A stretch of 64,000 nucleotides of DNA from an uncultured Holophagales bacterium (GTDB lineage: Bacteria; Acidobacteriota; Thermoanaerobaculia; Multivoradales; UBA5704): NCBI GenBank assembly GCA_963842525.1, contig CAWJGT010000012.1:1-64000 (forward strand), read 5' to 3'. A program made the translations under genes and the position numbers. How positions within the stretch are numbered: the stretch's first letter is position 1; each line of letters begins with the position of its first letter. Shown piece after piece: positions 1 through 19,051 of this stretch. The notes below the pieces were generated by a model. The model saw only the letters and a program-made list of their open reading frames with translations. It was not told where the DNA came from and made no database searches.

Positions 1-9
1 ATACCTAAG

Positions 10-1092
10 TCAAGGCATCAAGAGCTTGGCAACTGCTACAATGGCGGGCGCGAAGCGGATAGCGTTCACGACGGCTAGGGCCGGCTTTGCGTAGGGATAA
101 GTCTTAAGCCCAAGCAGATGGGTGCGCGCATGAATGAGGTCGGCAGAAAATTTTTTTCCTGTAGACAAACTATCCATTTCGGTTGTGAGCAGCTTGCTTA
201 TAGTCTCCAGAGACTCCCTTCTCTTTATGGCGGCAAATTTATGGACATGGTATACTGCACCGAAGCTTTGGACAAAAAAGAGGAGCGAGAGCCCGGACCA
301 AGGCGCCGTAACAAGAAGGTATGTTTTTGTTACATGTGTAATATGCAGCATATACAGAACAGCGAAAAAATTACCATAGATCAGCATGATCAGCATATTG
401 ATAGAGCCGAATATTGAAACTCCGCCGCAATTATCAGGATGAAAAAAGTCGATCCGCAGTAGATCATGCTGACGCATATATCTCAAAATGATAATGAGAG
501 ATGTAGTTACATGCACTGACACAAACAGAGCCGCAGGATAGACAAGAGTCCAGAGCGAGCAGAGATAGAACTTTGTCGCGTAGAAACCATAAGGATACTG
601 CATTGCGTCGAATACATCGTTTCCGTACGTCCCGACCGGGTCAATAGTCTGGATAATATTTGCGACACCGAAAAGAAATCCGATCAGGGAAAAGAAAAGA
701 AAAAGCCATGCGGACTTCCTGCGTAGCGACAGAGATCGCATGTGCCTCGCTACGAGTCGCTCTAGATCAGGCGGTACAGTGCCAAAAGGGGTATATTTAT
801 GCAATCCTTCCATGGCAGACAAAAATTTCTGGAGTAATACGATGGTGAGAACAATGATTGCAGGGGCGGTCAAAAATATAGTTAGCATCCCATAGTGCTG
901 AAATAATCCCTTGCCTGGAGTTTTCATCGACCATGTGCCATCGATGCGCGAGGCAATGAAGATTATTGAAGGGAGAGTGAGGTAAAGAGCAGTGGCCTTG
1001 ATGCAAGTCCGCCACTTAACAGAATCTTCGCATATCACGGAACTGAGCGCGATGTAGCGTCTGGTCAGAGACTTGAGAGGCATAACGTGCAT
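10..1092 (-). CDS. Multi-pass membrane protein of unknown function (HPDxCGG motif); start may be ATG at 1083
   Basis: 360-aa ORF with about 6 hydrophobic segments, motif DFFHPDNCGG, and lower GC than the core genes. Confidence 0.75.
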   Translation of the reverse strand: MHVMPLKSLTRRYIALSSVICEDSVKWRTCIKATALYLTLPSIIFIASRIDGTWSMKTPGKGLFQHYGMLTIFLTAPAIIVLTIVLLQKFLSAMEGLHKYTPFGTVPPDLERLVARHMRSLSLRRKSAWLFLFFSLIGFLFGVANIIQTIDPVGTYGNDVFDAMQYPYGFYATKFYLCSLWTLVYPAALFVSVHVTTSLIIILRYMRQHDLLRIDFFHPDNCGGVSIFGSINMLIMLIYGNFFAVLYMLHITHVTKTYLLVTAPWSGLSLLFFVQSFGAVYHVHKFAAIKRRESLETISKLLTTEMDSLSTGKKFSADLIHARTHLLGLKTYPYAKPALAVVNAIRFAPAIVAVAKLLMP

Positions 1093-1136
1093 AGGATAAT
1101 CTCTAGTTATCGCTCAAATCCTCACGATGCAGCGAG

Positions 1137-2360
1137 TTGGAGCTGGCTGTCGTGAGGTTCGCAGCAATAGTCCTCCACAGAGGAAGGCCTCCCCGCGGCG
1201 GCTCCATCGCGGCGGAGGAAATTAGCCTGCACGGCAAAGAGGTCATCTCCTATTCGATTGAAATCTTAAGCACTTACTGTGATGAGGTTGAGGTGGTGAA
1301 ACTCGCATCTGACGAGGATCTCGAAGACCGCATTTTTCGCACCTTGCAGGGAATGGTCAGTTCACAGAAGGGAGCTCCCGATTTTGTTGTACTGCATGAT
1401 GCTGCCCGTCCACTGATCACCCACAGCGTTGTACAGGAACTCATGTACCTACTCCTGAGTGGCCGGGAAATAGTTGCAGCTAGCGTACCAGCGCGTGAAC
1501 AGGCTTTAGTCAACCATACTATAGTAAGTGGAGTTCCTTCATTACAAACACCAGAGGGCTTTCCTTTCTTACTATTACTCAAAGCTCATGAGTGGAGAAT
1601 CAAGGAGCGAAGGTCCTTCGCAAGCGGCGTGGCTCTCGTATCATCTTGGCTCGGCGAGCCCCCTACTCTTGTACAGCAAGATATCTTTAATGGTCGAATC
1701 GAAACCTGCGAAGACATGGCCGCCGCGGAGGGAGTTCTCAAGTTTGGTCAGAAAGAAATCGCCGAAGACCCTCCCGATCTCCATGGCCTCCATGTCCTTG
1801 TATTGGGCGGGAGTGGTGGCATCGGCAATGCCTGCATGGATGCGCTTGAAAAGCTCGGGGCAACCTATAATGCGCCCACCCGCCAGCAACTCGACCTCAG
1901 CCGCGAACAGGGCTTTTCGGAGCTAACCACGTGCAATGCTGTGATCCACACAGCAGGCGAGTATAACGCGTCACCTGAAGATATTATGAGAGTTAATTTC
2001 TTTAGCTGCTTTAATATTCTATCTCAAGCGGAATCAAGAAGGTGGGAAGGCAACATTGTATTGATTTCCTCCACAGCGTCCGCATGGGGACGCCAGGGGA
2101 TACCGATCTATTCTGCCTCTAAGGCGGCCCTTAACGCACTTGTTGAATCTGACGCAGCACGCTTGGCATCTAAGGGAATTCTAGTGAACATCGTCGCACC
2201 TGGCAAGGTAAACACGCGTCTTCAAAAGACAATAAATCCTTCGGCAAGAACGGAGACGATGCTCTCGCCTGAGTACGTCGCTAGGATTGTTTGTCGCTAC
2301 CTCCACACAAACCAGTTCGGGAAATTAATCTTCCTCAGAAAAGGTTTTGACTGTGATTGA
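1137..2360 (+). CDS. Bifunctional IspD/TarI-like cytidylyltransferase + SDR oxidoreductase fusion (Bcs1-like architecture)
   Basis: N-half has VLHDAARP and LQTPEGF (IspD family); C-half has GGSGGIG, ISS and YSASK (SDR). Confidence 0.8.
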   Translation: MELAVVRFAAIVLHRGRPPRGGSIAAEEISLHGKEVISYSIEILSTYCDEVEVVKLASDEDLEDRIFRTLQGMVSSQKGAPDFVVLHDAARPLITHSVVQELMYLLLSGREIVAASVPAREQALVNHTIVSGVPSLQTPEGFPFLLLLKAHEWRIKERRSFASGVALVSSWLGEPPTLVQQDIFNGRIETCEDMAAAEGVLKFGQKEIAEDPPDLHGLHVLVLGGSGGIGNACMDALEKLGATYNAPTRQQLDLSREQGFSELTTCNAVIHTAGEYNASPEDIMRVNFFSCFNILSQAESRRWEGNIVLISSTASAWGRQGIPIYSASKAALNALVESDAARLASKGILVNIVAPGKVNTRLQKTINPSARTETMLSPEYVARIVCRYLHTNQFGKLIFLRKGFDCD

Positions 2361-2382
2361 AAATCTAAACGTGATTGATATA

Positions 2383-3504
2383 TCATAGCCAAGCTTCTAT
2401 TAACCAACAAAGCAGCTTTTTTGTTCTCGAAACGGTAGAAACGTTAGAAAGTGTTACAGGTAACGCCTTAGCCGCCTTCTCTTCAACTATCCTTCCCAGA
2501 TGCTGTCTGAGCCGGTTGTCATGCACCTCGAAGTTGACTTCTGAGTTTACAAATAGGCTCAAGGGGTCCCAATTTGCTGATCCTATTAGAGACCAATCTT
2601 CATCGATCGTCATCAGCTTCGAATGGTCAAAAGGCGGGGGGGTGGCCAAAATTATACACCCCTCCTTGAGAAGTAGTTCTAAATGCCTATTCGATGCCCA
2701 CTCGACTACAGCAAAATTGTATTGCGGTATTAGAAGACGCACCATGACTCTCCTTCTGACGGCATCAGCCAAGGCGCTCCTCAAGGCATCTGTGGGCAAG
2801 AAGTACGGAGTCACGACATCTATTCGCTGCTTGGCGGACGAAATCGCGCGGCAAAGAAAGGTCTCAAGCAGGGCCCTCGGATACCCAGGCCCGGTGACTA
2901 GAGGCCTCACAGTTGCGTCACCATGACGCTCCAAGAGTGGGTACCACTCCTCTCCCTCAAGAAGCTCACTTGAGACATCATGCCAATCCCTTGTGAACAA
3001 ACTTTGAAGGATAGAGATAATTGGACCCTCGATTCTGAAGTGCACATCCTGATTAACCTTCGGATCTCCACTATTAACCATCTGAGCGGCCCTGATGGTC
3101 ATGCCCCCACTAAAGCCGAGACGGCCATCTACTATGAGAATCCTCCTATGATATCGGGAGACAAATCTGCGAGTCCTACGGGGTGGCAATATTTGATGGC
3201 GAACCGTAATGCCGCACTTCCTGAGCTTGAGGAACATTCTGCGAAAGAGAGCTCGGCCGTCGATCAGCACTCGAACTTTAACTCCCCTCGCGACGGCTGC
3301 TGCAAGTGTACCGCAAAAGAGGTCTCCGACTTTGTCGTTGGCAAAATAGTATGTCGCGAGTGATATTGAGCAGCGCGCGTTCTCGATGGCAGCAAGCATC
3401 TGTGGGTACGCTGCCTCTCCATTTACCATAGGCGTGACCACATTCCCCGAGATAGGCTGCGTCTCATCGGGCCTTCGATGCGCGAGAAGATCAGATCCTC
3501 CCAT
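2383..3504 (-). CDS. Phospholipase D / cardiolipin synthase-like protein
   Basis: NGEAAYPQML, YHRRILIVDG (variant HKD1), TPYFLP, DHSKLMTID (HKD2), GSANWD. Confidence 0.85.
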   Translation of the reverse strand: MGGSDLLAHRRPDETQPISGNVVTPMVNGEAAYPQMLAAIENARCSISLATYYFANDKVGDLFCGTLAAAVARGVKVRVLIDGRALFRRMFLKLRKCGITVRHQILPPRRTRRFVSRYHRRILIVDGRLGFSGGMTIRAAQMVNSGDPKVNQDVHFRIEGPIISILQSLFTRDWHDVSSELLEGEEWYPLLERHGDATVRPLVTGPGYPRALLETFLCRAISSAKQRIDVVTPYFLPTDALRSALADAVRRRVMVRLLIPQYNFAVVEWASNRHLELLLKEGCIILATPPPFDHSKLMTIDEDWSLIGSANWDPLSLFVNSEVNFEVHDNRLRQHLGRIVEEKAAKALPVTLSNVSTVSRTKKLLCWLIEAWL

Positions 3505-3618
3505 AAGGGTTCCTCCCCATGTATCCTGGTGCAGATGTCTACTCTAAGCGAGATCTCGATGGGTGTCCATAGTCTCAGTGGACGTGAGGATGTGGTAGAC
3601 TCGTTGACTTGCTTGGGG

Positions 3619-5490
3619 ATGACAAAGATGACGACACCGGAGCGCGGGCAGAGAGTTGGCCATAGTAGCACCCACTATGAAGACTTCGCCCTCACCTTAG
3701 AGGCCGACGGGAGTGACTTTCGGGTGCGGTTGCTGCGCTCGCCTTATGGAGGGGGCGAGGCTCGCTTCAACTTGCCGCTTGCCGGCGACGAGATGCAGGA
3801 GCTACTTACGGAATTGGAGAACTCGGTGTGTCGGTGCGGCTCGACAGCCAGCGCGCAGGCTAGGCATCTAACGCTTGTAGAGGCGGAAACTCCCCTTAGT
3901 CCAGAGGGTGCTCCTAATCCGATAGCCCTGACCGTGGGAGAAGTCCTATTCGAAGCTCTCTTCACCGGCACGGTACGCGAGAGATACTTGTCGAGCCTTG
4001 GTTTGGTCGAGGCCCAGCCGGAGGCTGGCCTTCGCATAAGACTGGTCCTCGATCCCTCACGGCCCGAGATCGCCCCTCTCTGCGCTCTTCCCTGGGAGCT
4101 GCTCTATCGCCCTCAGACTCGCCATTTTCTTGCACGGGATGTGCGGACGCCGGTATGCCGCTTCCTCAACGTCCAGCAACCCAGCCGTGCGCTTCCGATC
4201 ATGGGACCTTTGCGTATTCTAGTTGCGATGGCGAGCCCCACCGATGCCCAGGCCCTCGATCTGCCAGCCGAGAGACGACGGATCGAGGCGGCCTGGGCTC
4301 GAACCTCTGGAGTCACTGTCGATTTCATAGAGCACGCCGGCATTGAAAATGTCTATCAGAAGCTGCGGGACGGTGCATATGAGGTGCTGCACTTCATGGG
4401 GCATGGAGACTTTGACGCGGACAAAGGGGTGCTGCTTTTCGAAGACGAGACCGGATGGAGTGCTCCAGTTGCAGGGGAAGTCTTGGGAGAGACCCTACGC
4501 GGTATTCGGTCCCTGCGCCTCGTTGTCCTCAATGCCTGCCAGAGCGCAGCATTCTCCCGCCGATCGGGCCAAGACCCCTATACAGGCGTCGCCAACGCTC
4601 TGGTTATGCGGGGTGTTCCTTCCGTGCTCGCCATGCAGTTTCCGATTTCCGACGAGGCCGCAATCTGCTTCAGTGGAGCGTTCTACTCAGCTCTAGCGGC
4701 CGGCGATCCGGTTGATAGGGCGGCGTCCGAGGGCCGCCTTGCGATCTATCGCGCGGCTCCCTACTCCTTTGAATGGGCGACGCCAGCTCTCTTCCTGAAC
4801 GTCCCTGACGGGCGGCTCTTTGCACCAAGCGCGCAAAACGCCGAAGCGCGGGGCCATGCCGACGGAGTGAATGAAGATTTTGTCTCAGTGGTCTGGGCGG
4901 ATATGCAGCCCCTGTTTATCGTTGACTTCACTCCTCCTACACGGCTTAAGGCGGCGCGCGAAACCACGCCAAGCAACTCACTTCTCACCGGCCGGCGGGG
5001 CGCATGGACAGGTGTATTTGTCGAAGGCGGCTATGTATTGATTAACGATGGCAAGCGCGAAGACATCAAGTACTTTTGTCTGAGCGATAACATGCTCAAT
5101 CTCTCTGAGGCGCCTGTTTCTGTCGAGGTCGCAATCGAAAGCGTGGCCCGGGAACCGGACTTAGCGGGAGCGGGGCTCCTCTATCGCTGCGACTCGCGAA
5201 CTGGATGCTACTACGCGTTTCTGCTGAAACCCGGGCAGAGCTTCGCCTTCTATCGCTTCGATGCCCAAGGCTTCGGCCTAGTCTATAGCGAACTCTCTAC
5301 GGCGATCCGCACCGGGGAACTCAACCGGCTGGCTATACTCGGAGCCGGGCATTCGATCCATCTGTACATCAACGAGCAGCGCGTCAAGACGATCGAGGAG
5401 CCTAACCCTCTCTGGGGGGATCAGGTGGGGATTGTGGCGGTCAGCCGTGGGCGATACCGCTTCGATAACTTCGCTGTCTTCCGGACCTAA
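3619..5490 (+). CDS. CHAT (caspase-like) protease with a C-terminal beta-sandwich, LamG/DUF1080-like domain
   Basis: LPWELL, VLHFMGHG (His) and VVLNACQS (Cys), AMQFPISD; beta-rich C-terminus ending in YRFDNFAV. The ORF is open from 3478; ATG 3619 or 3628 is more plausible. Confidence 0.85.
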   Translation: MTKMTTPERGQRVGHSSTHYEDFALTLEADGSDFRVRLLRSPYGGGEARFNLPLAGDEMQELLTELENSVCRCGSTASAQARHLTLVEAETPLSPEGAPNPIALTVGEVLFEALFTGTVRERYLSSLGLVEAQPEAGLRIRLVLDPSRPEIAPLCALPWELLYRPQTRHFLARDVRTPVCRFLNVQQPSRALPIMGPLRILVAMASPTDAQALDLPAERRRIEAAWARTSGVTVDFIEHAGIENVYQKLRDGAYEVLHFMGHGDFDADKGVLLFEDETGWSAPVAGEVLGETLRGIRSLRLVVLNACQSAAFSRRSGQDPYTGVANALVMRGVPSVLAMQFPISDEAAICFSGAFYSALAAGDPVDRAASEGRLAIYRAAPYSFEWATPALFLNVPDGRLFAPSAQNAEARGHADGVNEDFVSVVWADMQPLFIVDFTPPTRLKAARETTPSNSLLTGRRGAWTGVFVEGGYVLINDGKREDIKYFCLSDNMLNLSEAPVSVEVAIESVAREPDLAGAGLLYRCDSRTGCYYAFLLKPGQSFAFYRFDAQGFGLVYSELSTAIRTGELNRLAILGAGHSIHLYINEQRVKTIEEPNPLWGDQVGIVAVSRGRYRFDNFAVFRT

Positions 5491-5636
5491 CTAAATATAG
5501 AGCACAGAACGCTGGATTTCAACACCCTTGCAGATGCGCATTGGTGCCATCTATAGTATCTTTGGGTCGTCAGAAAGGATCCGCTGTGTGAGAGCTACGC
5601 TTGACCGAGACATCTATGGCCGAGCTCAAACGGCGG

Positions 5637-6443
5637 TCAATCACTCAGCAGCCGGACGATGTTCTCTCGGGTCAGCAGACTTAGCTCATGGGAGGATTCG
5701 AGGAACGGCTGAACGTCTACCTCAATCCGCTTCCAGCCGAGGAGCTGAACTCGTTCGGCCACTGTTGAATGCCAGGTCCGCTCGGTCAGCGATGGACCGG
5801 GCCAGCCGGTCTGCTCCAGGGCATTGTTGAGCAGGAGGAGATTGGGCGCGGGCCAGGTGGGGTCGCTCAGATACCAGATCAGGTCGTAGATGTCCCTGCC
5901 CTTTGGATAGGTACGCTGGAGGATCGCGTGAAGCTTTCCGGCTAAAAGAGAAGCCCGGTCGTGGTGCTGAAGCTGCAACGTCAGATGCCTGCGGATAATG
6001 GTGGTCTCCAGAACCGCTCCGGCCGGAGGGCGGGTGTCGACCTCCAGCTTGACGGAGAGCTTTTCGTTTCGGTGAGGTGAGACGCCCACCTCGAACAGAA
6101 GACCGGTGAAGCCGATGAAGGCGCTGTGGATGGTCCTGGCATCGTTGGCCTTGAGCTCGATTTCGTAACCCTCCTGCTGAAGATCGCTGCGGATATTCTT
6201 GAGGTAGCTCCGGAAGTCGTATCCGCGGTCCGGCCGCTCGAGAGCGAAGTCGAGGTCTTCCGAGTACCTTCGGATCGAGTAGAGAAAGCGCAGGGCCGTG
6301 CCCCCCTGAAACGCCAGGGGGATCATGGCGCCGGAGCGCTGGAGCGACCCGAGAATCCGAGCCTGGAGGTACTCGCGGATGCGGTTCCGGGCGTCCGTCG
6401 CACCCTTAGCCCCGCGGACCAGATTCCGCAGATCCTCTTTCAT
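5637..6443 (-). CDS. AbiEii/AbiGii nucleotidyltransferase toxin (type IV TA)
   Basis: FQGGTALR...RYSEDLDF, AGKLHA, RDIYDL; 4-bp overlap with the upstream antitoxin gene. Confidence 0.9.
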   Translation of the reverse strand: MKEDLRNLVRGAKGATDARNRIREYLQARILGSLQRSGAMIPLAFQGGTALRFLYSIRRYSEDLDFALERPDRGYDFRSYLKNIRSDLQQEGYEIELKANDARTIHSAFIGFTGLLFEVGVSPHRNEKLSVKLEVDTRPPAGAVLETTIIRRHLTLQLQHHDRASLLAGKLHAILQRTYPKGRDIYDLIWYLSDPTWPAPNLLLLNNALEQTGWPGPSLTERTWHSTVAERVQLLGWKRIEVDVQPFLESSHELSLLTRENIVRLLSD

Positions 6444-7081
6444 AGAGCCTCGTACTCCATGGCTTCGGTCTCCGCCAACCGGGCCACGTGCTCAGCGGCG
6501 CGCAGGATCTTGGGTTTCCCGAAAGCTTCCGCCTGTCTTCGGAGCTCGTCCAGGTCCAGAACCTCCATGTGCTGCAGACGAAGCTCGTTCAGGTAGGCGG
6601 GCGCATCAGCGCCCGGCTCCAGATAGATCAGGTCCAGGAGAGCCTTCTCGGGCGTGGCCAGGAACGCCTCCTGTTCGCCTCCCAGGTCCGTGCGCCTGTA
6701 ACCCCGCAGGTGCTCGCTCTGGATGTGCCGGAAGTCGTAGATCCCCAGGGGCGTATCCCAGCGGGCCGGACGAGAGGTGGTGACGCTGGTGGTCACCGGG
6801 ACGTACTCCGGAATCAGGCCGCAATGGGCCAGGGCCGACTGGAGGCTTACGTAGGAGCCCCGGACGAGGCGGTTGGCGACCAGGAACGGATGGGGCTTGA
6901 CCTTCTGGTACGGCGGCGCCAGGGCGTAGAGGCCGCGGCGGAGCTGGTAGAGGCGGCCGGCCTCGACCCAGCGCGAGAGTTGGCGGCGGACATCGGCAGG
7001 ATCGACGTCGCCTGCCAGGAGGAGCCCAGGCTCGAAGACCGGCTCGTCCCCTACGGTCTCCAGCAGCCGCTCGAACTTCAT
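6440..7081 (-). CDS. AbiEi-family antitoxin / transcriptional regulator (type IV TA)
   Basis: QLSRWVEAGRLYQLRRGLY wHTH, SYVSLQSALAHCGLIPE, ATPEKALLD. Confidence 0.9.
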   Translation of the reverse strand: MKFERLLETVGDEPVFEPGLLLAGDVDPADVRRQLSRWVEAGRLYQLRRGLYALAPPYQKVKPHPFLVANRLVRGSYVSLQSALAHCGLIPEYVPVTTSVTTSRPARWDTPLGIYDFRHIQSEHLRGYRRTDLGGEQEAFLATPEKALLDLIYLEPGADAPAYLNELRLQHMEVLDLDELRRQAEAFGKPKILRAAEHVARLAETEAMEYEAL

Positions 7082-7135
7082 GCGTCCAAGCTACCAAAGA
7101 TGGCAACTTGCTGCAACGGATTCCCGGCCCGGAAG

Positions 7136-7681
7136 CGGACAGTTCTCCTCGCAGTCCGAGCGGCTCTCCACAGGGAGCGGACGGTCTTTCCTGCGATGCG
7201 GGGCGCTCTGCACGCGAAGCGGACGGTTCTGAATCCATCGAGGGTCATCTGTTAGGCGTTCCGGACGGTTCTGAACGCGTTGAGGACGGTTCCGAGTGCG
7301 CAGCGGATGGTTCTGAATGCGTTCCGCACCATCCTCTTCGCGTTGCGGACGGTCCTGTGCCCCTTGAGGACCGTCCGATAGGCGTTCCGGATGGTCCTGA
7401 ACGCATCGAGGATCGTTCGATATGTGTTTCGGACGGTCCTGAATGCCTTGCGGACGGTTCTGAAGGCGCAACGGACGATCCGGAACGCGTTGCGAATCGT
7501 CCTTTTCGCCTTTCGCACCGTCCTTTATGCATATCGGACGGTTCTCAACGCGTTGAGGAACGTCCGCTGGGCGTTCCGGATGGTTCGAAATCCATCGAGG
7601 ACCGTCCGGACCGCGTCGAGGACCGTCCGTTACGCATCGAGAGCGGCCCTGAAGGGTCTCAGGACCGGCCGGAGCCCGCAG
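7136..7681. repeat. Degenerate tandem array of 26 x 21-bp units, consensus about CGGACGGTYCTGAACGCGTTG
   Basis: Units counted by eye; the register is kept without indels from 7136 to 7681; each unit is two abutting near-palindromes. Confidence 0.9.
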
Positions 7682-7811
7682 CGATTCGGCGAGGTCCCAG
7701 ACCCGTTCGCCGTCGCGATGAGCCCAGAGGCCCTTGAGACTATACTGGGCAAGAAGGAAGCGCGAAGGGTTCTCTGGAGCCGGAATCAGCTTGCATCTGA
7801 AGGAGGAGCTT

Positions 7812-8513
7812 ATGGTCCATGCGAGAGAAGCTGTGCGTTTGGCGGGGTCCGTCCTCGACCGCTCGCGGCACGTTTGCGCCTTTTTCAACAGCAAGGACGA
7901 GGAGTACCGCGTCCTCCTGCCCTTCATCCAGGAGGGCTTCGAGGTGGGGGACAAGGCCTTCCATATCGTCGACGGGAGGCGCCGCGCGGACCACCTGCGG
8001 CACCTGGCACAGGCTGGCATCGACGTCACAACGGCTCAGGACGCGGGCCAGTTGGAGGTCCTCCCGTGGGAGGAGGCGTATCTCCGGGAGGGGCACTTCG
8101 ACCAGGATGCCATGCTCGCGCTGATCGAGGTGGTCCTGAACGGCGGCAAGTCCCAGGGATTCCCCCTGACCCGCCTGGTGGCTAACATGGAGTGGGCGCT
8201 GGAGGACCGGCCGGGAGTGAACGATATCGTGGCGTACGAGGCCCGGCTCAATTACATCCTCCCCAAGTATGACGATGCCGTGGTCTGAACGTACGACTGC
8301 GCCAAGTTTGGCGCCGGGATCGTGCTCGACATCCTCCGCACCCATCCCATGGTCATCCTGGGAGGCATCCTGCAGGAGAACCCCTTCTTCGTCCCGCCGG
8401 ACGAGTTCCTGCGCGAGCTCCGCGAGCGGGAGGGCCCGGGCTCTCCTGCCAGTACGCCTCCCAGGTCGGAAGGGATGAGGGTCGCGCCCGATGCAGCCGG
8501 CGAAAGCGGATGA
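7812..8513 (+). CDS. MEDS-domain sensor protein with an in-frame TGA at 8286-8288 (putative selenocysteine)
   Basis: RBS AGGAGG at 7801; RHVCAFF, TRLVANMEW, YEARLN; after DAVV-TGA the frame continues TYDC..DILRTHPMVILGGILQENPFFVPPDEFL (the MEDS C-terminus). Confidence 0.8.
8289..8324 (+). promoter_or_regulatory. Candidate bacterial SECIS hairpin
   Basis: Upper stem GCGCCA(8299-8304)/TGGCGC(8309-8314), loop AGTT starting 16 nt after the TGA, lower stem TACGA/TCGTG. Confidence 0.6.
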
Positions 8514-10164
8514 GGTCCAGGGCTTCGCCGCTGCATCCGCGACCTGGTGGCCCTCTCGGCGCTGCCCGCGGTCTGGAGGCTCCTTTGACGCGCACGGCAT
8601 CGCCGAGCACCTGGCCGACGTCCTCCAGCGCACCCTGCACCTGGACCTGATCTTCATCCGGGTGGCGGGCTCGCCCGAAACGGCTCCGTTCGAGGTCGCC
8701 TACACCGGCCCCCGGCAGGCCACCCTCGAACAGGCACAAGACATCCGCAGTGCTCTGGCACCCTGGCTGGAGCCCGGACATTCCGGCCACCTCGTCGCCA
8801 TCCCCGATCCCTCGGCGGACGGGCCGCTGCAGACCGTCATCGTCCCGATCGGGATCGCGGGAGATTGCGGAGTCCTGGCCGTGGGCTCGCGGCGGCCGGA
8901 GTTCCCGGGCGAGACCGACCGCCTGCTGCTCGGCATCGCGGCCAACCAGGCGGCGATCGTGCTCCAGCGCAGGAGGGTGGAGGAGGAGCGCAACCGGAGG
9001 GTTGAGCAGTTGGCGGAGGCCGACCGTCGCAAGGACGAATTCCTGGCGATGCTGGCCCACGAGCTGCGCAATCCCCTGGCGCCGCTCAGCAACGCCCTGC
9101 AGATCCTGCGGATGACCGGCAGCAGCGAGCGGGTCCAAGAGATGATGGAGCGCCAGGTCCGGCACATGGTGCATCTCGTCGACGACCTGCTGGAGGTCTC
9201 CCGGATCACCCGCGGCAAGATCGATCTCCGCAAGGAGAGGATCGACCTCGCGGCCGTCGTGCAGAATGCGATCGAGACCAGCTCTCCGCTGATCGAGGCG
9301 TCGTGCCATGAGCTGACGGTCAATCTGTCCCCCGAGCCGCTGGTCCTCGACGCCGATCCCGTCCGTCTGGCCCAGGTGGTGGCAAACCTCCTCAACAACG
9401 CCGCCAAGTACACCGACCCCGGCGGCCGGATCTGGCTCACTGCCGAGCGCGACGGGATCGAGGCCGTCCTCCGCGTGCGGGACAGCGGCATCGGCATCCC
9501 CGCGGAGATGTTGCCCCGCATCTTCGAGATGTTCGCGCAGGCCGACCGCTCGCTCGGCCGCGCCCAGGGAGGGCTGGGGATCGGGCTGACCCTGGCCCGC
9601 AGCCTGGTCCAGATGCACGGCGGCACGATTCACGCCGATAGCGACGGCCCCGGGCAGGGCAGCGAGTTCGTCGTCCGCCTGCCGCTCGCTCCGGAGGTCC
9701 GTCCCAGCTCGGAGGAAGGACGGCGGGAGGACCGCTTGCACACCGCCGCGCCGGCCGCGCGCCGTATCCTGATCGTGGATGACAACCGGGACGCAGCCGA
9801 GAGCCTCGGCACGCTCCTGGAAATCCGCGGGAACGAAGTCCAGGTCGCCGGCGACGGCCCGTCCGCGCTCGCCGCGATCGGCGCCTGGCATCCGGCGGTG
9901 GTTCTGCTCGACATCGGCCTGCCGGGGATGGACGGCTACGAAGTCGCCCGCCGGGTGCGGGCGCAGCCTGGGCTGGAGGATACGGTGCTGATTGCCTTGA
10001 CGGGATGGGGGCAGGAGGACGACCGCCGCCGTTCGCGGGAGGCGGGTTTCGATCATCATCTGGTCAAGCCGGTGGACTTCCAGGTTCTCGAAGCTCTGCT
10101 CGCCGGAATCGCGGATTACGGCGCCAGCCGCGTCTCCCCCGTCTCGTCCGAATCCGGCATGTAG
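8491..10164 (+). CDS. Hybrid sensor histidine kinase (GAF-like - HisKA - HATPase - REC)
   Basis: FLAMLAHELRNPL, NLLNNAAKY, DSGIGI, GLGIGL, receiver ILIVDD..LLDIGLP..KP; apparent compensating frameshifts at about 8521-8578. Confidence 0.92.
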   Translation: MQPAKADEVQGFAAASATWWPSRRCPRSGGSFDAHGIAEHLADVLQRTLHLDLIFIRVAGSPETAPFEVAYTGPRQATLEQAQDIRSALAPWLEPGHSGHLVAIPDPSADGPLQTVIVPIGIAGDCGVLAVGSRRPEFPGETDRLLLGIAANQAAIVLQRRRVEEERNRRVEQLAEADRRKDEFLAMLAHELRNPLAPLSNALQILRMTGSSERVQEMMERQVRHMVHLVDDLLEVSRITRGKIDLRKERIDLAAVVQNAIETSSPLIEASCHELTVNLSPEPLVLDADPVRLAQVVANLLNNAAKYTDPGGRIWLTAERDGIEAVLRVRDSGIGIPAEMLPRIFEMFAQADRSLGRAQGGLGIGLTLARSLVQMHGGTIHADSDGPGQGSEFVVRLPLAPEVRPSSEEGRREDRLHTAAPAARRILIVDDNRDAAESLGTLLEIRGNEVQVAGDGPSALAAIGAWHPAVVLLDIGLPGMDGYEVARRVRAQPGLEDTVLIALTGWGQEDDRRRSREAGFDHHLVKPVDFQVLEALLAGIADYGASRVSPVSSESGM

Positions 10165-10354
10165 ATCCCTGCGCTCAGGATGACACGACAGGCCACGGAT
10201 CACCAGCCGGTCGATCGTGTTCGCTGGTAAAGACTTTCGCGCCACCCTCTACAGTAAGACAAGCATTGAGCCCTGATCGAGCACGAGAGCCTACCGCCCT
10301 GAAGCGCCCAGCGCGAGCTGACGCTGGGCTATGACACGCCGCGTCACATGCCCC

Positions 10355-11191
10355 TTACTTCAACGGTTGAACGGTGCCGTCGGCGATCGCCTGCTCGAGC
10401 AGGCGGAGCAGAGTTGCATCGAGCGTGCGGAGGCGATCGTCGCGCCGCGCATCGATCTGGCGCTGCACCATTTCGATCGCGTTTTCCTCGTGCTTGAGCT
10501 CCTTCTCTTCCAGGTAGAGCTCGTCCATCCGGCGGTCGAGCTCGTCGGCTTCTTTTTCTTTCCTGTCCTGGCGGGTTTCGACGTCCCGGAGCTGTGCGTC
10601 GATGTCGTCGATCTCCCGCCGCAGCATGCAGGCGACCTCTTCACTCTCGGTAAACGGCAACCGTATATCCAGATCGAACTTACGCCAGAACAGCGCGCTG
10701 TGCTCGTCGGAAAGGCGGCTCTCCTCGCTGGAGACCCGGTCTTGCTCCTGGCGGATCTCCTCCCGGCGCCGCGCGAGGTCTTTCTTTTCTTGCTCGAGGA
10801 GCGCGCCGCGGCCCTCGGCCAGCTCCTGCTCCTCGCGGACCAGGGGCTCGTTCCCTGTCGACCACAGCTCGTCGATCTGCCCCAGCAGGTCCGGGTTTTG
10901 AATGACGTACTCGCGGCCCTCATGGCGCATCCAGACGAAATCTCCGTCGAGCGAGTTGCGCAGGCTCTGGATCCGCGCCAGGTCTCCCAGGCGGCCGGAC
11001 ATCAGCATGTCGTCGTCCAGGCGCACGGCGAACGCCTCCGCGCGGCCGGGCTCGGGTGCGGCGGTGAAGCGCGCCCGGTCGAGCGCCGAGGCGGTCCATG
11101 GAAGAAGAAAAACCAGAGCGGCCAGCCCGAGCCGCCAGTGGAGGCGCGAGCGAGTCTGAGCAGCGTCGGTTTGGAAGCTTGGAGGTCTCAT
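10355..11191 (-). CDS. Secreted protein with a long coiled coil, function unknown
   Basis: Signal peptide ending in ASA; E/K/R-rich heptad region. Confidence 0.7.
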   Translation of the reverse strand: MRPPSFQTDAAQTRSRLHWRLGLAALVFLLPWTASALDRARFTAAPEPGRAEAFAVRLDDDMLMSGRLGDLARIQSLRNSLDGDFVWMRHEGREYVIQNPDLLGQIDELWSTGNEPLVREEQELAEGRGALLEQEKKDLARRREEIRQEQDRVSSEESRLSDEHSALFWRKFDLDIRLPFTESEEVACMLRREIDDIDAQLRDVETRQDRKEKEADELDRRMDELYLEEKELKHEENAIEMVQRQIDARRDDRLRTLDATLLRLLEQAIADGTVQPLK

Positions 11192-11256
11192 GCCTCTTCA
11201 GACACGCGAGCCCCCCACAAGATTACCTCGACCTTGCCTTGAACGCTCCGCATGCG

Positions 11257-11312
11257 TCCCCCCTCTCCCGGTTGGGGGGAGTGCGATGGGAGAGGGGGAC
11301 AGGGGGTGAGGA
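11257..11312. repeat. REP-like palindrome of the CCTCACCCCC..CCTCTCCC family
   Basis: Lies right after the phoR stop; same family as copies at 25591, 49669, 54723, 57030, 59874 and 61233. Confidence 0.75.
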
Positions 11313-13070
11313 TCAGACCGGCAGCCGCACGCGGAACGTCGTCCCCTTCCCCATCCGGCTTTCGACGTCGACCTGGCCGCCGTGGCCCTGGGCGACGTGC
11401 TTGACGATGGCGAGGCCGAGGCCGGTGCCGCCCTCTTCCCGCGCCCTGCCTTTGTCGACCCGATAGAAGCGCTCGAAGATGCGGGGGAGCGACTCGGCCG
11501 GGATGCCGATGCCGGTGTCGGTGACCTCCAGAAGGATCTCGCCGTCCTCTCTCCCGAGATGGACGTCGACCTGGCCTTCGGGGCGGTTGTACTTGATGGC
11601 GTTGTCGAGGAGGTTCAAGACGAGCCGCTCGAGGCCGTCGGCGTCGCCGCTGATCTGGGGTACGGGCTCGGTCCGGACCTCCAGATGGACCCGGCGATCG
11701 CGGGCCGCGGGTGTGAGGAGGTCGACCGCCCTGTGGACGACGGCGTGGAGGTCCACAGGCTCGCGCTCGACAGTATTGGAGACGGAGGAGACGGAAACGC
11801 TCTCCAGGCGGGACAGGGTCAGCAGGTCGTCGAGCAGCGCCTGGAGGCGCCGGCTCTGTTCGAGGATGCGCTCGGTGAAGCGGCGGGCGGTGGGCGGCTC
11901 GTCGAGCGCGCCGTCGCGCAAGGTCTCGGCGTAGCCGCGGATGGCCGCGAGCGGGGTCTTGAGCTCGTGCGAGACGTTGGCCACGAAATCCCGCCGCATG
12001 TCGGCCACCCGGGTGAGCTGGGTGGTGTCGCGGAAGACCACGACGGCGCCGCGCTCGCCGCCGGCCAGGGCTGCGCTGGCCAGGAGCAGGGTCCGCCGCT
12101 CGGGCGACTGCAGCTCGATCTGGCCGCCCTGGGACTCTCCCAGCCGCAGGGTGTCCTCGACGAGGCGCGCCAGCTCGGGGAGGCGCAGGAGCTCGAGGAC
12201 GGTGCGGCCGGCCACGTCGCCGCTCAGGTCGAAGAGCTCGTAGAAGGCCGGATTGGCGAGGCGGGCGCGGCGGTCGGCGCCAACTACGAGCACTCCCTCG
12301 CTCATGCTGGAGAGGATGGCCTTCAGATGGTCGCGCTCGTCGCGGACCGCCGCGAACTGCGCCTCGGCGGTCTCGGCCAGCCGGTTGAGCGCGAGGGCGA
12401 GGGCGGCGAGCTCCTCCTCTTCCGGCACGTCGACGCGCCGCACCCGGCCGCTCGCCAGCTCGCCGGCACCCCGGATCAGACCCGCGAGGGGTCCGAAGAG
12501 CCGGCGGTCGATCCACAGGGAGATGCCCAGGAGCACCGCGCTCGCGGCGAGCAGGGCGAGGCCCATGGCCGCCGCGATCTGGCCACGCAGGGCGCGGATC
12601 TCCGACAGGGGCTGCGCCAGGCGCACCACGAGGAGCCGACCCTGGTTGTCCGTCACCGTCCTGGCGGCATAGACGTAGGGATGGCCCGTGGTCTCGCTGT
12701 GGCGCACCACGGACCCCTGTCCGGTCTCCAGGGCAGACCGGATCTCAGGACGCGCGGCGTGGTTCTCCATGGCCACGAGTTGCTCGGGCGTGCGCTCGCT
12801 GTCGGCGATGACCGTGCCGTCGCTCTGCACGATCGTGATCCGCAGCGGGCTGTGGGACGCCACCTGGCGCACCCAGGCTTGGGCCTCCAGGCCTTCGTTG
12901 CGGGCGTCGAGGACCACCGGAGCGAGGATCTCGAGCATGTCGAGCAGCTCGGTCGAGGAGCTCTGCTCCAGTAACCCGGGGACGAGGAACCAGAGGAAAA
13001 CGGCGGCCACCAGCACCGCCGCCAGGGCGGGCCAGAGCGGCGCGAGACGCAGTTTGCGAGGGAAGCGCAA
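11313..13070 (-). CDS. phoR: Phosphate regulon sensor kinase
   Basis: ENHAARPEI periplasmic motif, HAMP, PAS, RRDFVANVSHELKTPL, ERFYRVDKGRAREEGGTGLGLAIVKH. Confidence 0.9.
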   Translation of the reverse strand: MRFPRKLRLAPLWPALAAVLVAAVFLWFLVPGLLEQSSSTELLDMLEILAPVVLDARNEGLEAQAWVRQVASHSPLRITIVQSDGTVIADSERTPEQLVAMENHAARPEIRSALETGQGSVVRHSETTGHPYVYAARTVTDNQGRLLVVRLAQPLSEIRALRGQIAAAMGLALLAASAVLLGISLWIDRRLFGPLAGLIRGAGELASGRVRRVDVPEEEELAALALALNRLAETAEAQFAAVRDERDHLKAILSSMSEGVLVVGADRRARLANPAFYELFDLSGDVAGRTVLELLRLPELARLVEDTLRLGESQGGQIELQSPERRTLLLASAALAGGERGAVVVFRDTTQLTRVADMRRDFVANVSHELKTPLAAIRGYAETLRDGALDEPPTARRFTERILEQSRRLQALLDDLLTLSRLESVSVSSVSNTVEREPVDLHAVVHRAVDLLTPAARDRRVHLEVRTEPVPQISGDADGLERLVLNLLDNAIKYNRPEGQVDVHLGREDGEILLEVTDTGIGIPAESLPRIFERFYRVDKGRAREEGGTGLGLAIVKHVAQGHGGQVDVESRMGKGTTFRVRLPV

Positions 13071-17210: not shown

Positions 17211-19051
17211 ATAGGGGTAGGGAGGGCCGGTTGAGTTCCCGGCTCCCCCTCCCTCCGAACCGGACATGCGGATCTCCCGCATCCGGCTCTCCAGTTGGTG
17301 GTTTTACCTGCTAGAGGATTGACGGGCCTGAGCATAGGCTGTGACGTAGGAGAACAACCCATGCTCAGCAAAGAAGGCGTTCGGCCAGCGATGATGGTCC
17401 TGACCCCGGCCACGTCCTCGTCTCCCTTGCCGGTGGCGAAGGATGCTCCTCAGGCGCATCCGCACCCACTGGTCGAGAGGCTTGAACGTGGTGCCGTGAC
17501 TGTGTTTGAAGTACTCAAACCAGCCCCGACGGACTGCGTTGACTCGGCGGATGATCTCTCGCAGGCTGATGCCGTGCGTGCGCTTGGTGTGGGAACGGAT
17601 CGTGTCCTTGTGCTTCTTCAGGCTCTTCTTGCTCGGCCAGCGATAGCCGCGCTCGAAGTGGTACCCAAGGAAGTCGAAGCCACCCGGCTGGGTGGCGTCC
17701 ACGATGCGCGTCTTGTCGGGATGAAGTTGCAGACCGGCGGCTGCCGTCCACTCCTCCACCTCCGCCAACGCTCGCTCGGCCTCTTCTCGGCTACGGCACA
17801 AAATCACGAAGTCATCAGCGTACCGCACCATCTCATAACCTTGTTCGGCCATTTGATGGTCGAGAGGGTCCAGGTAGATATTCGACAGCAGGGGACTGAT
17901 CACCGCTCCTTGTGGAGTTCCCTCCTCAGGAGTCCAGTGCTCCAGACCCACCATCACTTCCTGGTCGAGAAAGGCACGCACCAGGTCCAAGACCCGGCCG
18001 TCCGATACCTTCGCTTCGATTCTCGCCATCAAACCCTGGCGAGGGATCGTGTCGTAATAGCTGCGCAGGTCGGCGTCCACCACATGGGTATAGCCGGCCT
18101 CCAGCAGCTCCGAGACGCGACGCAGCGCAGCCTTGGTACTTCTCCCCGGACGGAATCCGTAGCTCTGGGCTGCAAACTCCCGTTCGAAGATCGGTTCCAA
18201 GACATTGCGCAGCGCTCCTTGCACCACCCGGTCTTGAACCGTCGGAATCCCCAGAGGGCGCTCCTCGGAGCTACCCGGCTTGGGTATCCACACCCGGCGA
18301 ATCGCCTGCGGACGATAACTGCCGTCTTTCAGACTAGCCGCCAGGTTCTCCAGGTTCTTGCCGAGGTGGGCGCTGAACTGCGCGACCGTCACGTGGTCAA
18401 CCCCAGCGCTTCCCTGGTTCCGCCTGACCCGCTGGTAGGAAGAGTCCAGGTTGCGCGAGTCATAGACCTTGTCGATCAGACTGAACCATTGGCCTCCTTG
18501 GACCCCAGCTTCGAGGGCCGTCAACATGCGATCCGTCCAGACATGCGGTTCCACCCAGGGCCACCGGCCCCGGACTTCTCCGGCTTGTTTAGCCCTTACA
18601 GGCACTGACGCGCGGTTGCTTTCCGCTTGTCCAGTCGTCACGCATCCACCTCCCTGTCCCCCTTTGCTCCACGCCCGTTACGGCGCTTCTCAGCTCCTAT
18701 GAGGACTCTGACTCCTCGGCAAGTCTCCTGCCCGACCGAGGTCTCCCCGCTTCACGTCACACGTCCTTTGAGACCATTCTGCATCCAATCACCCTACGCC
18801 CCCCCATCGCCGCTTTCGCACGCTACCCCTCAGCTCGATGGGTCTCCCTTGAGGGTCCAGACTTCGCCAGTGGCTTGCAGGCTCGTCGGGGTCACAAGGC
18901 CGAATCGATTTCGTCTCCTGCGGACTGGTCTCTCACCTCCGGTTGCTCTCCACCTCGCTTTGGGCGACGCAGTTACCTTCGGTTACAGGCCGGAGAGCGT
19001 ATGCCTGAAGAGGACTTTCACCTCTCTGAACGTGTGCGCTCACGGGCGCAC
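17211..19051 (-). mobile_element. Complete group II intron
   Basis: 5' end GTGCG at 19051; domain V GAGCCGGATGCGGGAGATCCGCATGTCCGGTTC; domain VI ending CCCTACCCCTAT at 17211; encodes an RT. Confidence 0.92.
17304..18641 (-). CDS. ltrA: Group II intron reverse transcriptase/maturase (no endonuclease domain)
   Basis: RPLGIPTVQDR, SYGFRP, GTPQGAVISPLL, RYADD, FDFLG. Confidence 0.95.
   Translation of the reverse strand: MTTGQAESNRASVPVRAKQAGEVRGRWPWVEPHVWTDRMLTALEAGVQGGQWFSLIDKVYDSRNLDSSYQRVRRNQGSAGVDHVTVAQFSAHLGKNLENLAASLKDGSYRPQAIRRVWIPKPGSSEERPLGIPTVQDRVVQGALRNVLEPIFEREFAAQSYGFRPGRSTKAALRRVSELLEAGYTHVVDADLRSYYDTIPRQGLMARIEAKVSDGRVLDLVRAFLDQEVMVGLEHWTPEEGTPQGAVISPLLSNIYLDPLDHQMAEQGYEMVRYADDFVILCRSREEAERALAEVEEWTAAAGLQLHPDKTRIVDATQPGGFDFLGYHFERGYRWPSKKSLKKHKDTIRSHTKRTHGISLREIIRRVNAVRRGWFEYFKHSHGTTFKPLDQWVRMRLRSILRHRQGRRGRGRGQDHHRWPNAFFAEHGLFSYVTAYAQARQSSSR

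Follow-up and report, generated by a model that had tools for sequence, protein, structure and literature searches.

The MEDS domain (Pfam PF14417) is known from cysteine-type regulators such as DcmR of Methylobacterium and EtnR2 of Mycobacterium NBB4. DcmR has been linked to dichloromethane and EtnR2 to ethylene oxide, and the family has been predicted in the literature to sense small hydrocarbon derivatives (PMC11197473). EtnR2 consists of the MEDS domain only and works with a separate regulator (PMC11197473). In this study, we analyzed a MEDS gene found in a stretch of 64,000 nucleotides from an uncultured Holophagales bacterium of the phylum Acidobacteriota (assembly GCA_963842525.1, contig CAWJGT010000012.1, positions 1 to 64,000 of the forward strand), hereafter called the window. 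The encoded domain is the same as that of DcmR and EtnR2, and the protein is, like EtnR2, a stand-alone MEDS protein. However, this gene differs from the Cys-type systems in that the conserved cysteine (Cys) site is encoded by UGA, presumably as selenocysteine (Sec), and in that its putative partner is a hybrid histidine kinase instead of a PucR/GAF transcription factor. We consider it highly likely that positions 7812-8513 form a single MEDS gene of 233 residues, in which UGA codon 159 is translated as Sec by means of SelA, SelB, SelD, tRNA-Sec and a selenocysteine insertion sequence (SECIS) at 8291-8325, replacing an otherwise invariant Cys.

In the catalogued bacterial selenoproteins that have a bacterial SECIS (bSECIS) in the coding region, such as FdhF of E. 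coli and the Prx-like and AhpD-like proteins, an in-frame UGA aligns with Cys, and the same is true here. The position of the hairpin a few nucleotides past the UGA, the G and U in a small apical loop and the 16-nt spacing are also as described for bSECIS selenoproteins (PMC13188914). By analogy with these proteins, dependence on selA, selB, selC and selD is expected. Most selenoproteins are redox proteins, and the catalogued ones are mostly thiol-type oxidoreductases (PMC13188914), whereas the window protein would be a signalling domain without enzymatic activity that is associated with a two-component kinase. On the basis of the comparisons described below, we propose with high confidence a new selenoprotein family within the bacterial selenoproteins that carry a coding-region SECIS. 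The gene comprises the following features:

7801-7806, + strand: Shine-Dalgarno-like AGGAGG, read from the sequence, with a 5-nt spacer to ATG 7812
7812-8513, + strand: predicted stand-alone MEDS-domain selenoprotein gene, 233 residues (translation, Pfam PF14417, homologues 65-77% identical over the full length)
8286-8288, + strand: putative Sec codon UGA, codon 159, at the family's invariant Cys position (homologue alignment, codon counts)
8291-8325, + strand: predicted bacterial SECIS hairpin (folding, bSECIS constraints, covarying pairs and constrained synonymous codons in 114-134 unique TGA forms)
8291-8296 / 8320-8325, + strand: lower stem GTACGA / TCGTGC (fold)
8299-8304 / 8309-8314, + strand: upper stem GCGCCA / TGGCGC, 6 bp (fold)
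8305-8308, + strand: apical loop AGTT (AGUU), with G and U at loop positions 2-3 (fold)

The frame that starts at ATG 7812 runs for 233 sense codons to TGA 8511-8513. Its sole interruption is TGA 8286-8288, across which it reads ...YDDAVV-U-TYDCAKF...DILRTHP.... Under genetic code table 11 the gene is split into two open reading frames (ORFs), one that ends at 8288 and one of 63 codons at 8322-8513 (start GTG 8322), and the called-protein collection contains the 158-residue MEDS fragment (P0013). The first-pass annotation, made from the sequence alone, had proposed that these two ORFs are one frame broken by the TGA alone, that automatic annotation would split the gene, and that the product is a Sec-containing MEDS protein of 233 residues. 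Translation and the protein collection agree with the first two proposals, and the third is supported by the conserved TGA/Cys pair, the SECIS covariation and the presence of the Sec machinery. Alternatively, the UGA could be a true stop yielding a truncated MEDS protein of 158 residues, with the downstream frame either untranslated or expressed separately from GTG 8322. Precisely these two ORFs are what table 11 delivers, and P0013 is what the protein collection holds. Sec insertion is generally inefficient, and therefore some truncated MEDS product is likely in any case. However, the Pfam MEDS match runs across the UGA, with residues 19-179 covering profile positions 1-161 of 161 (E 5.3e-41; 140.6 bits versus a gathering threshold of 29.8). 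Moreover, in all 141 TGA loci that we examined the tail is conserved and continues in frame without a stop, the UGA site alternates with Cys codons alone, and simple termination leaves the covariation of the SECIS and its frozen synonymous sites unexplained. For these reasons, we regard a true stop as very improbable.

Full-length homologues of the protein (about 206-240 residues) number in the thousands, and the best 120 are 65-77% identical. The column of the UGA is an invariant Cys in 21/21 aligned full-length homologues and in 59/59 of a larger alignment, in line with the Cys that the first-pass annotation had expected at this site. Codons were counted in a sample comprising the best 80 loci from each of two scans plus 8 from a search of related genomes, of which 162/168 could be parsed. 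TGA was found in 141 of them, TGC in 17 and TGT in 4; hence independent homologues carry either TGA (141/162) or a Cys codon (21/162). The distinct 51-nt downstream sequences number 119 for the TGA forms and 21 for the Cys forms. Among the best 80 loci of the species-representative genome scan, TGA is found in 68 and a Cys codon (TGC or TGT) in 12. The metagenome contig scan was seeded on purpose with a Cys-form alignment, and the 76 loci parsed from its best 80 have TGA in 66 cases, TGC in 9 and TGT in 1. Close homologues (71-84% identity) occur in 6/60 related genomes, with TGA at the identical codon in 6/6, and a seventh related genome with a 59%-identical homologue has Cys at this site. 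Beyond the TGA, the frame stays open for 47-74 codons in 141/141 TGA loci, and the HP..Q.N.FF.P motif is retained in 133/141.

The TGA forms among the 80 species-representative loci distribute as follows, according to phylum labels taken from record titles. Individual labels may be wrong, since almost all of these records are metagenome bins.

Acidobacteriota: 47 TGA-form loci
Planctomycetota: 7 TGA-form loci
Rokuibacteriota: 3 TGA-form loci
Pseudomonadota: 3 TGA-form loci
Armatimonadota: 2 TGA-form loci
Gemmatimonadota: 2 TGA-form loci
Dormiibacterota: 1 TGA-form locus
Chloroflexota: 1 TGA-form locus
Unplaced: 2 TGA-form loci

On a FastTree tree without support values, and hence indicative only, at least 8 changes between Sec and Cys are needed. 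The codons around the site also show a bias. Where Ile precedes the Sec codon it is written with the rare ATA in 73/78 unique sequences (the window has GTC at 8283-8285), and the base following the UGA is A in 115/119 unique sequences. These preferences may reflect a context effect on Sec decoding.

Reassignment of the genetic code was considered and excluded. The terminal stop is TGA in 87/141 TGA-form genes, the window gene among them, and TGA is therefore an ordinary terminal stop in these organisms.

A pseudogene, or a TGA introduced by a sequencing or assembly error, was also contemplated. The gene lies on an 11.3-kb segment that was assembled three times at contig ends, and in the copy on contig C26 the MEDS and kinase genes differ by 99 substitutions and 56 one-base indels. 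Nevertheless, the three copies in the assembly all have TGA at this codon, and the same TGA precedes 119 distinct downstream sequences found elsewhere, in genomes and metagenomes. Because the TGA is conserved in homologues, a possible read error is irrelevant, and the comparative data refute this explanation for practical purposes. One soil-metagenome run, in which only 0.05 of the sampled words occur, yielded four short contigs, all belonging to relatives with less than 95% likeness to the window; one of these, which represents a relative and not the source reads, starts at 8285 and has no listed difference at 8286-8288.

The bSECIS model in PMC13188914 calls for an upper stem of 4-16 bp capped by an apical loop of 3-9 nt, a G within loop positions 1-2 that is mostly followed by G or U, a distance of 16-37 nt between the UGA and the loop, and a minimum free energy (MFE) of -7.5 kcal/mol or lower. 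The window hairpin, with its loop 16 nt from the UGA and an MFE of -18.6 kcal/mol, agrees with all four of these constraints. The first-pass annotation had described a GCGCCA-AGTT-TGGCGC hairpin with a lower stem, whose loop lies 16 nt past the UGA and has G followed by U, and had matched it to the bacterial SECIS model; folding recovers this structure, and the match holds for the four published constraints. An Rfam scan of window positions 7000-8800 gave no match.

In a comparison across homologues, the hairpin is preserved in all TGA forms, with compensatory base changes. Pair counts in 114 unique TGA-form sequences reveal three structural solutions with a constant loop position. In the main class (n=86), the five core pairs are formed in 86/86 sequences, and pair 14-29 is U-G in 53, G-C in 15, C-G in 4 and unpaired in 14. 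In the second class (n=9), pair 17-27 joins the second base of a His/Leu/Arg codon with the third base of a Gly codon and is A-U in 7, U-G in 1 and G-C in 1. The third class (n=19) has a bulged U, and its pair 20-24, which joins position 2 of an Arg/Gln codon with the third base of a Phe codon, is G-C in 8 sequences and A-U in 8. Such covariation between nonsynonymous and synonymous sites has no explanation at the protein level. Synonymous sites are also frozen over the hairpin: Ala at +5 is GCC in 125/125 sequences, Lys at +6 is AAG in 103/103, and Phe at +7 is the rare TTT in 122/134 TGA forms versus 7/21 Cys forms. Outside the hairpin, Lys at -5 is AAA in 34 sequences and AAG in 24, and codon entropy reaches 1.6 for Gly at +25 and 1.45 for Gly at +26, versus 0.72 for Gly at +8.

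The Cys forms provide a further comparison. For the 27-nt core, the MFE averages -10.4 kcal/mol in TGA forms versus -4.7 in Cys forms (125 versus 21 unique sequences; Mann-Whitney p 5e-11, kinship not corrected for), and all seven model pairs are formed in 65/114 TGA forms versus 1/21 Cys forms. Only one Cys form (L179) retains the hairpin intact, and it seems to stem from a recent change of Sec to Cys. Thus, the hairpin is not equally present in Cys homologues, and on comparative grounds we read hairpin 8291-8325 as a SECIS element.

Downstream hairpins can stimulate read-through, and the UGA could in principle be read not by tRNA-Sec but by a tRNA for Trp, Cys or Arg, either near-cognate or suppressor, with the hairpin acting as a general stimulator. 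Sequence data alone do not distinguish which residue is inserted. However, the hairpin matches SelB-type bSECIS elements in its loop (G then U), size and spacing, and the alternative codons are all Cys (21/21 non-TGA loci), which is the signature of Sec/Cys exchange. Moreover, Sec machinery is found in all 12 TGA-bearing genomes examined, that of the window included. The latter genome (9.95 Mb, 34 contigs, 96% complete) carries the complete set that the selenoprotein proposal had called for: selA (359.5 bits), selB above the cut-off (316.1 bits, or 361.6 with a neighbouring match in frame), selD without an internal stop (265.6 bits) and one tRNA-Sec with anticodon tca (ARAGORN). The other TGA-bearing genomes have SelA, or SelB and tRNA-Sec, in 11/11 cases, and SelA matches at E <= 2e-131 in five TGA-bearing genomes labelled as five other phyla. 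Hence, near-cognate read-through seems hardly credible. A Sec-type formate dehydrogenase was not found in the window's genome (TIGR01553, no match at E <= 1e-20), and a PF00384 search of the same genome gave two matches, both without an internal stop.

At the protein level, the AlphaFold2 model (60-row alignment, C replacing U) has a predicted local distance difference test score of 88.1 and a predicted template modelling (TM) score of 0.82. Its best Foldseek matches are FlaH, KaiC CI and archaeal RecA-superfamily ATPases (E 4.6e-6 to 1e-4, TM 0.5-0.57, identity 11-19%), with which the protein has an alpha/beta fold in common. The profile match to SSO2452 is weak, being marginal among PDB chains (PDB 2w0m, E 0.17). 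Unlike these ATPases, the window protein has no Walker A motif, with FFNSKDEEY following strand 1, and an ATPase function is not expected. Thus, the model assigns the protein to an inactive KaiC/RecA-like alpha/beta fold class. This agrees with the label 'iKaiC' given to MEDS by Galperin et al. (2018; PMC5847659). The protein also has in common with the RsbA anti-sigma regulators a MEDS-like N-terminal region (NF041045; 57.8 bits against a cut-off of 210, residues 19-205). However, this match covers only positions 2-174 of 303 in the profile and the C-terminal part of RsbA is missing, so the protein is not a member of that family.

Two residues stand out in the predicted structure. C22 belongs to the motif H-V-C-A-F-F on the first core strand (20-25), and U159 to strand 156-162, which follows the Walker-B-like strand (120-125). 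ASCE/RecA-type folds place the strand that comes after Walker B between the P-loop and Walker-B strands, and this strand order leads us to expect C22 and U159 side by side. In the model, the pair would occupy the location of the nucleotide site of KaiC/RecA ATPases. The reactive-site Cys and the Cys of the H-x-C motif are conserved in Cys-type homologues down to 27% identity (the DcmR and EtnR2 sequences lying outside this comparison), and both C22 and C/U159 are retained in paralogues that are 27-34% identical. C22 is the only other invariant Cys of the family and the sole Cys besides Sec in 82/141 Sec forms; therefore, the thiol partner of Sec, if there is any, would be C22. The residue preceding Sec is Cys (a CU dipeptide) in 16/82 unique contexts; the window protein instead has a Cys four residues beyond Sec.

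Several points weigh against the reading of UGA as Sec or against what we build upon it. Taken alone, the window hairpin does not fold better than chance (z = -0.85; 44/200 shuffles of this GC-rich sequence fold equally well), and its significance is therefore drawn from the comparative data only. The loci in our counts are related and partly redundant, some genomes being common to the related-genome and species-representative scans, and for this reason counts of unique sequences are also given. SelA is found in 4/6 related TGA-bearing genomes and was not found in the other two (G018 and G021; 94% and 91% complete), both of which carry SelB and tRNA-Sec. The genomes with Cys forms also have SelA, with a strong match in 4/5 and a weak partial match in the fifth; hence, the presence of the machinery does not discriminate TGA from Cys forms. 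In the same way, SelA occurs in 57/61 genomes of the order sample, irrespective of the presence of the MEDS gene. Finally, the placement of C22 and U159 on neighbouring strands at a degenerate nucleotide pocket derives from fold topology and not from a measured distance. With these points taken into account, the UGA is very probably read as selenocysteine.

Regarding function, we infer that Sec159 is the sensing residue of the MEDS protein and that the chemistry involved may be redox, electrophile or soft-metal chemistry. Sec is costly, and it is kept where higher nucleophilic reactivity or a more readily reversed oxidation brings a benefit. In the proposed sequence of events, the SelA/SelB/SelD/tRNA-Sec system would decode UGA 8286-8288 as Sec under the direction of hairpin 8291-8325. 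Sec159 would then act as the reactive residue, becoming oxidised, being alkylated by an electrophile or binding a soft metal, and a Se-S bond between Sec159 and C22 could form upon modification. The modified MEDS protein would switch the co-translated hybrid histidine kinase. In the version that we tentatively prefer, Sec159 would be modified by an oxidant or electrophile, possibly with formation of the Se-S bond, and the control that MEDS exerts on the kinase would change as a result. The first-pass annotation had likewise suggested a redox or electrophile sensor, and this part of its reading stays at the level of a proposal.

The main competing function, which we deem rather unlikely, is that Sec159 serves as a metal, metalloid or cofactor ligand together with H20, C22 and possibly H51 or H178, making the protein a metal or metalloid sensor. 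In the model, H20/C22 (H-x-C) and U159/Y161 (U-x-Y) are each spaced two residues apart on two strands, so that each pair would face one side, and several His residues are invariant or nearly so. The CU dipeptide seen in some Sec contexts points in the same direction, as this motif is catalogued for the organometal- or metal-related selenoproteins SaoL, HgcA and MbdU (PMC13188914). On the other hand, conservation of the Cys at -1 is lacking, with 66/82 contexts having I, V, T or L there, no genes for metal handling adjoin the MEDS gene, and those Cys-type MEDS systems that have been characterised are linked to small electrophilic compounds (PMC11197473).

The gene that adjoins the MEDS gene is the candidate output of this sensor:

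8491-10164, + strand: hybrid histidine kinase with GAF-like, HisKA, HATPase_c and REC domains (Pfam)

An association with a signal-transduction output module is a trait of MEDS, and here the adjoining kinase would be this module. Its ATG at 8491 lies inside the MEDS gene, giving an overlap of 23 nt with the end of the latter. As read from the sequence, no alternative in-frame start precedes the conserved part of the kinase, which makes translational coupling of the two genes plausible. Among the loci with at least 900 nt of flank, a homologous kinase on the same strand lies downstream in 122/132, that is, in 107/117 TGA forms and 15/15 Cys forms. Given the 23-nt overlap of the two genes, production of the kinase could be controlled by Sec decoding and, through it, by the supply of selenium. 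A scan of window positions 7000-10400 for promoters and terminators gave nothing above shuffles.

The MEDS and kinase genes belong to the repeated segment mentioned above, which spans window positions 1-11310 and also carries SDR/IspD-like, PLD, CHAT and AbiEii/AbiEi genes and a 303-aa ORF. The additional copies are at C22:93599-103155 and C26:1-11257 (contigs C22 and C26), with 99.4% and 98.4% identity, respectively. All copies stop at about 11310, where an 85-bp repeat that is also present on contigs C4, C34 and C22 begins. The differences of the C26 copy are concentrated on the repeat array, the MEDS gene and the kinase (window 7096-10330); 53 of its 56 indels are bases missing in C26, and the flanks show 0-4 differences per kb. 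A smaller cluster of differences is found in the copy on contig C22, at window positions 2000-4000. The C26 cluster is probably a long-read consensus error in a repeat, a decaying duplicate being the other conceivable source. Further features of the window are listed here:

5637-7081, - strand: AbiEii nucleotidyltransferase toxin and AbiEi-like antitoxin pair, directly upstream of the tandem array
7220-7641: degenerate tandem array of about 20 copies of a 21-nt unit (periods 42 and 84 also scored), shortly before the MEDS gene
11313-13070, - strand: second histidine kinase, PAS-containing, just outside the repeated segment
17042-19245, - strand: group II intron element with a reverse transcriptase/maturase (RVT_1 and GIIM; ORF 17304-18641)

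The long ORFs on both strands of the tandem array gave no Pfam match, and the array could be either a protein of 7-residue repeats or non-coding. The group II intron element, roughly 2.1 kb in length, recurs at 97-99% identity on contigs C1, C6, C9 and C19.

The first-pass annotation had placed MEDS outside the selenoprotein families known to it, and the sources that we consulted concur. PF14417/MEDS does not appear in Table 1 of a 2026 review, which catalogues 119 prokaryotic selenoprotein families and subfamilies (PMC13188914; supplementary lists excluded), and the text of the review does not contain MEDS, sensor, DcmR, histidine kinase or Acidobacteri-. Neither the text of the deep-Sep paper (PMC12013277; Table S2 excluded) nor that of the preprint 10.1101/2022.07.06.499078 mentions MEDS, sensor or DcmR. 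NCBIfam release 20 has no specific model, the sub-threshold RsbA match being the only one. Full-text literature, with supplements, subscription journals and NCBI record annotations out of scope, yielded no publication that joins MEDS with selenoproteins. It appears that a MEDS selenoprotein family has been missed by current catalogues and annotation models, and that its gene is routinely reduced to a fragment such as the 158-residue one found here and an orphan ORF.

Two aspects of this family are unusual, namely a signalling domain that is a selenoprotein and the commonness of the Sec form in soil bacteria. Among the sampled closest relatives, Sec and Cys forms stand at 141:21, with labels of at least 8 phyla and soil metagenomes. 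As the Sec form outnumbers the Cys form in the sampled loci, selenium use by soil bacteria may be underestimated. Furthermore, the pairing of Sec with Cys at one site strongly indicates that a residue is chemically active and therefore points to the working residue of MEDS. This residue would offer a handle for mutagenesis and reactivity work in a family whose sensing mechanism is still a prediction in the literature (PMC11197473). A broader and more speculative proposal is that MEDS sensors in general act by covalent chemistry at one nucleophilic Cys or Sec. The Sec form would then be a selenium-dependent redox or electrophile switch, an input module of two-component systems and the first such selenoprotein known, and in soil bacteria (Acidobacteriota, Planctomycetota and others) few selenoproteins would be as common. 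If this is true, synthesis of the kinase may respond to the selenium supply of the cell, and the Sec form of MEDS may help to keep the Sec machinery in genomes in which no Sec-type formate dehydrogenase is detected.

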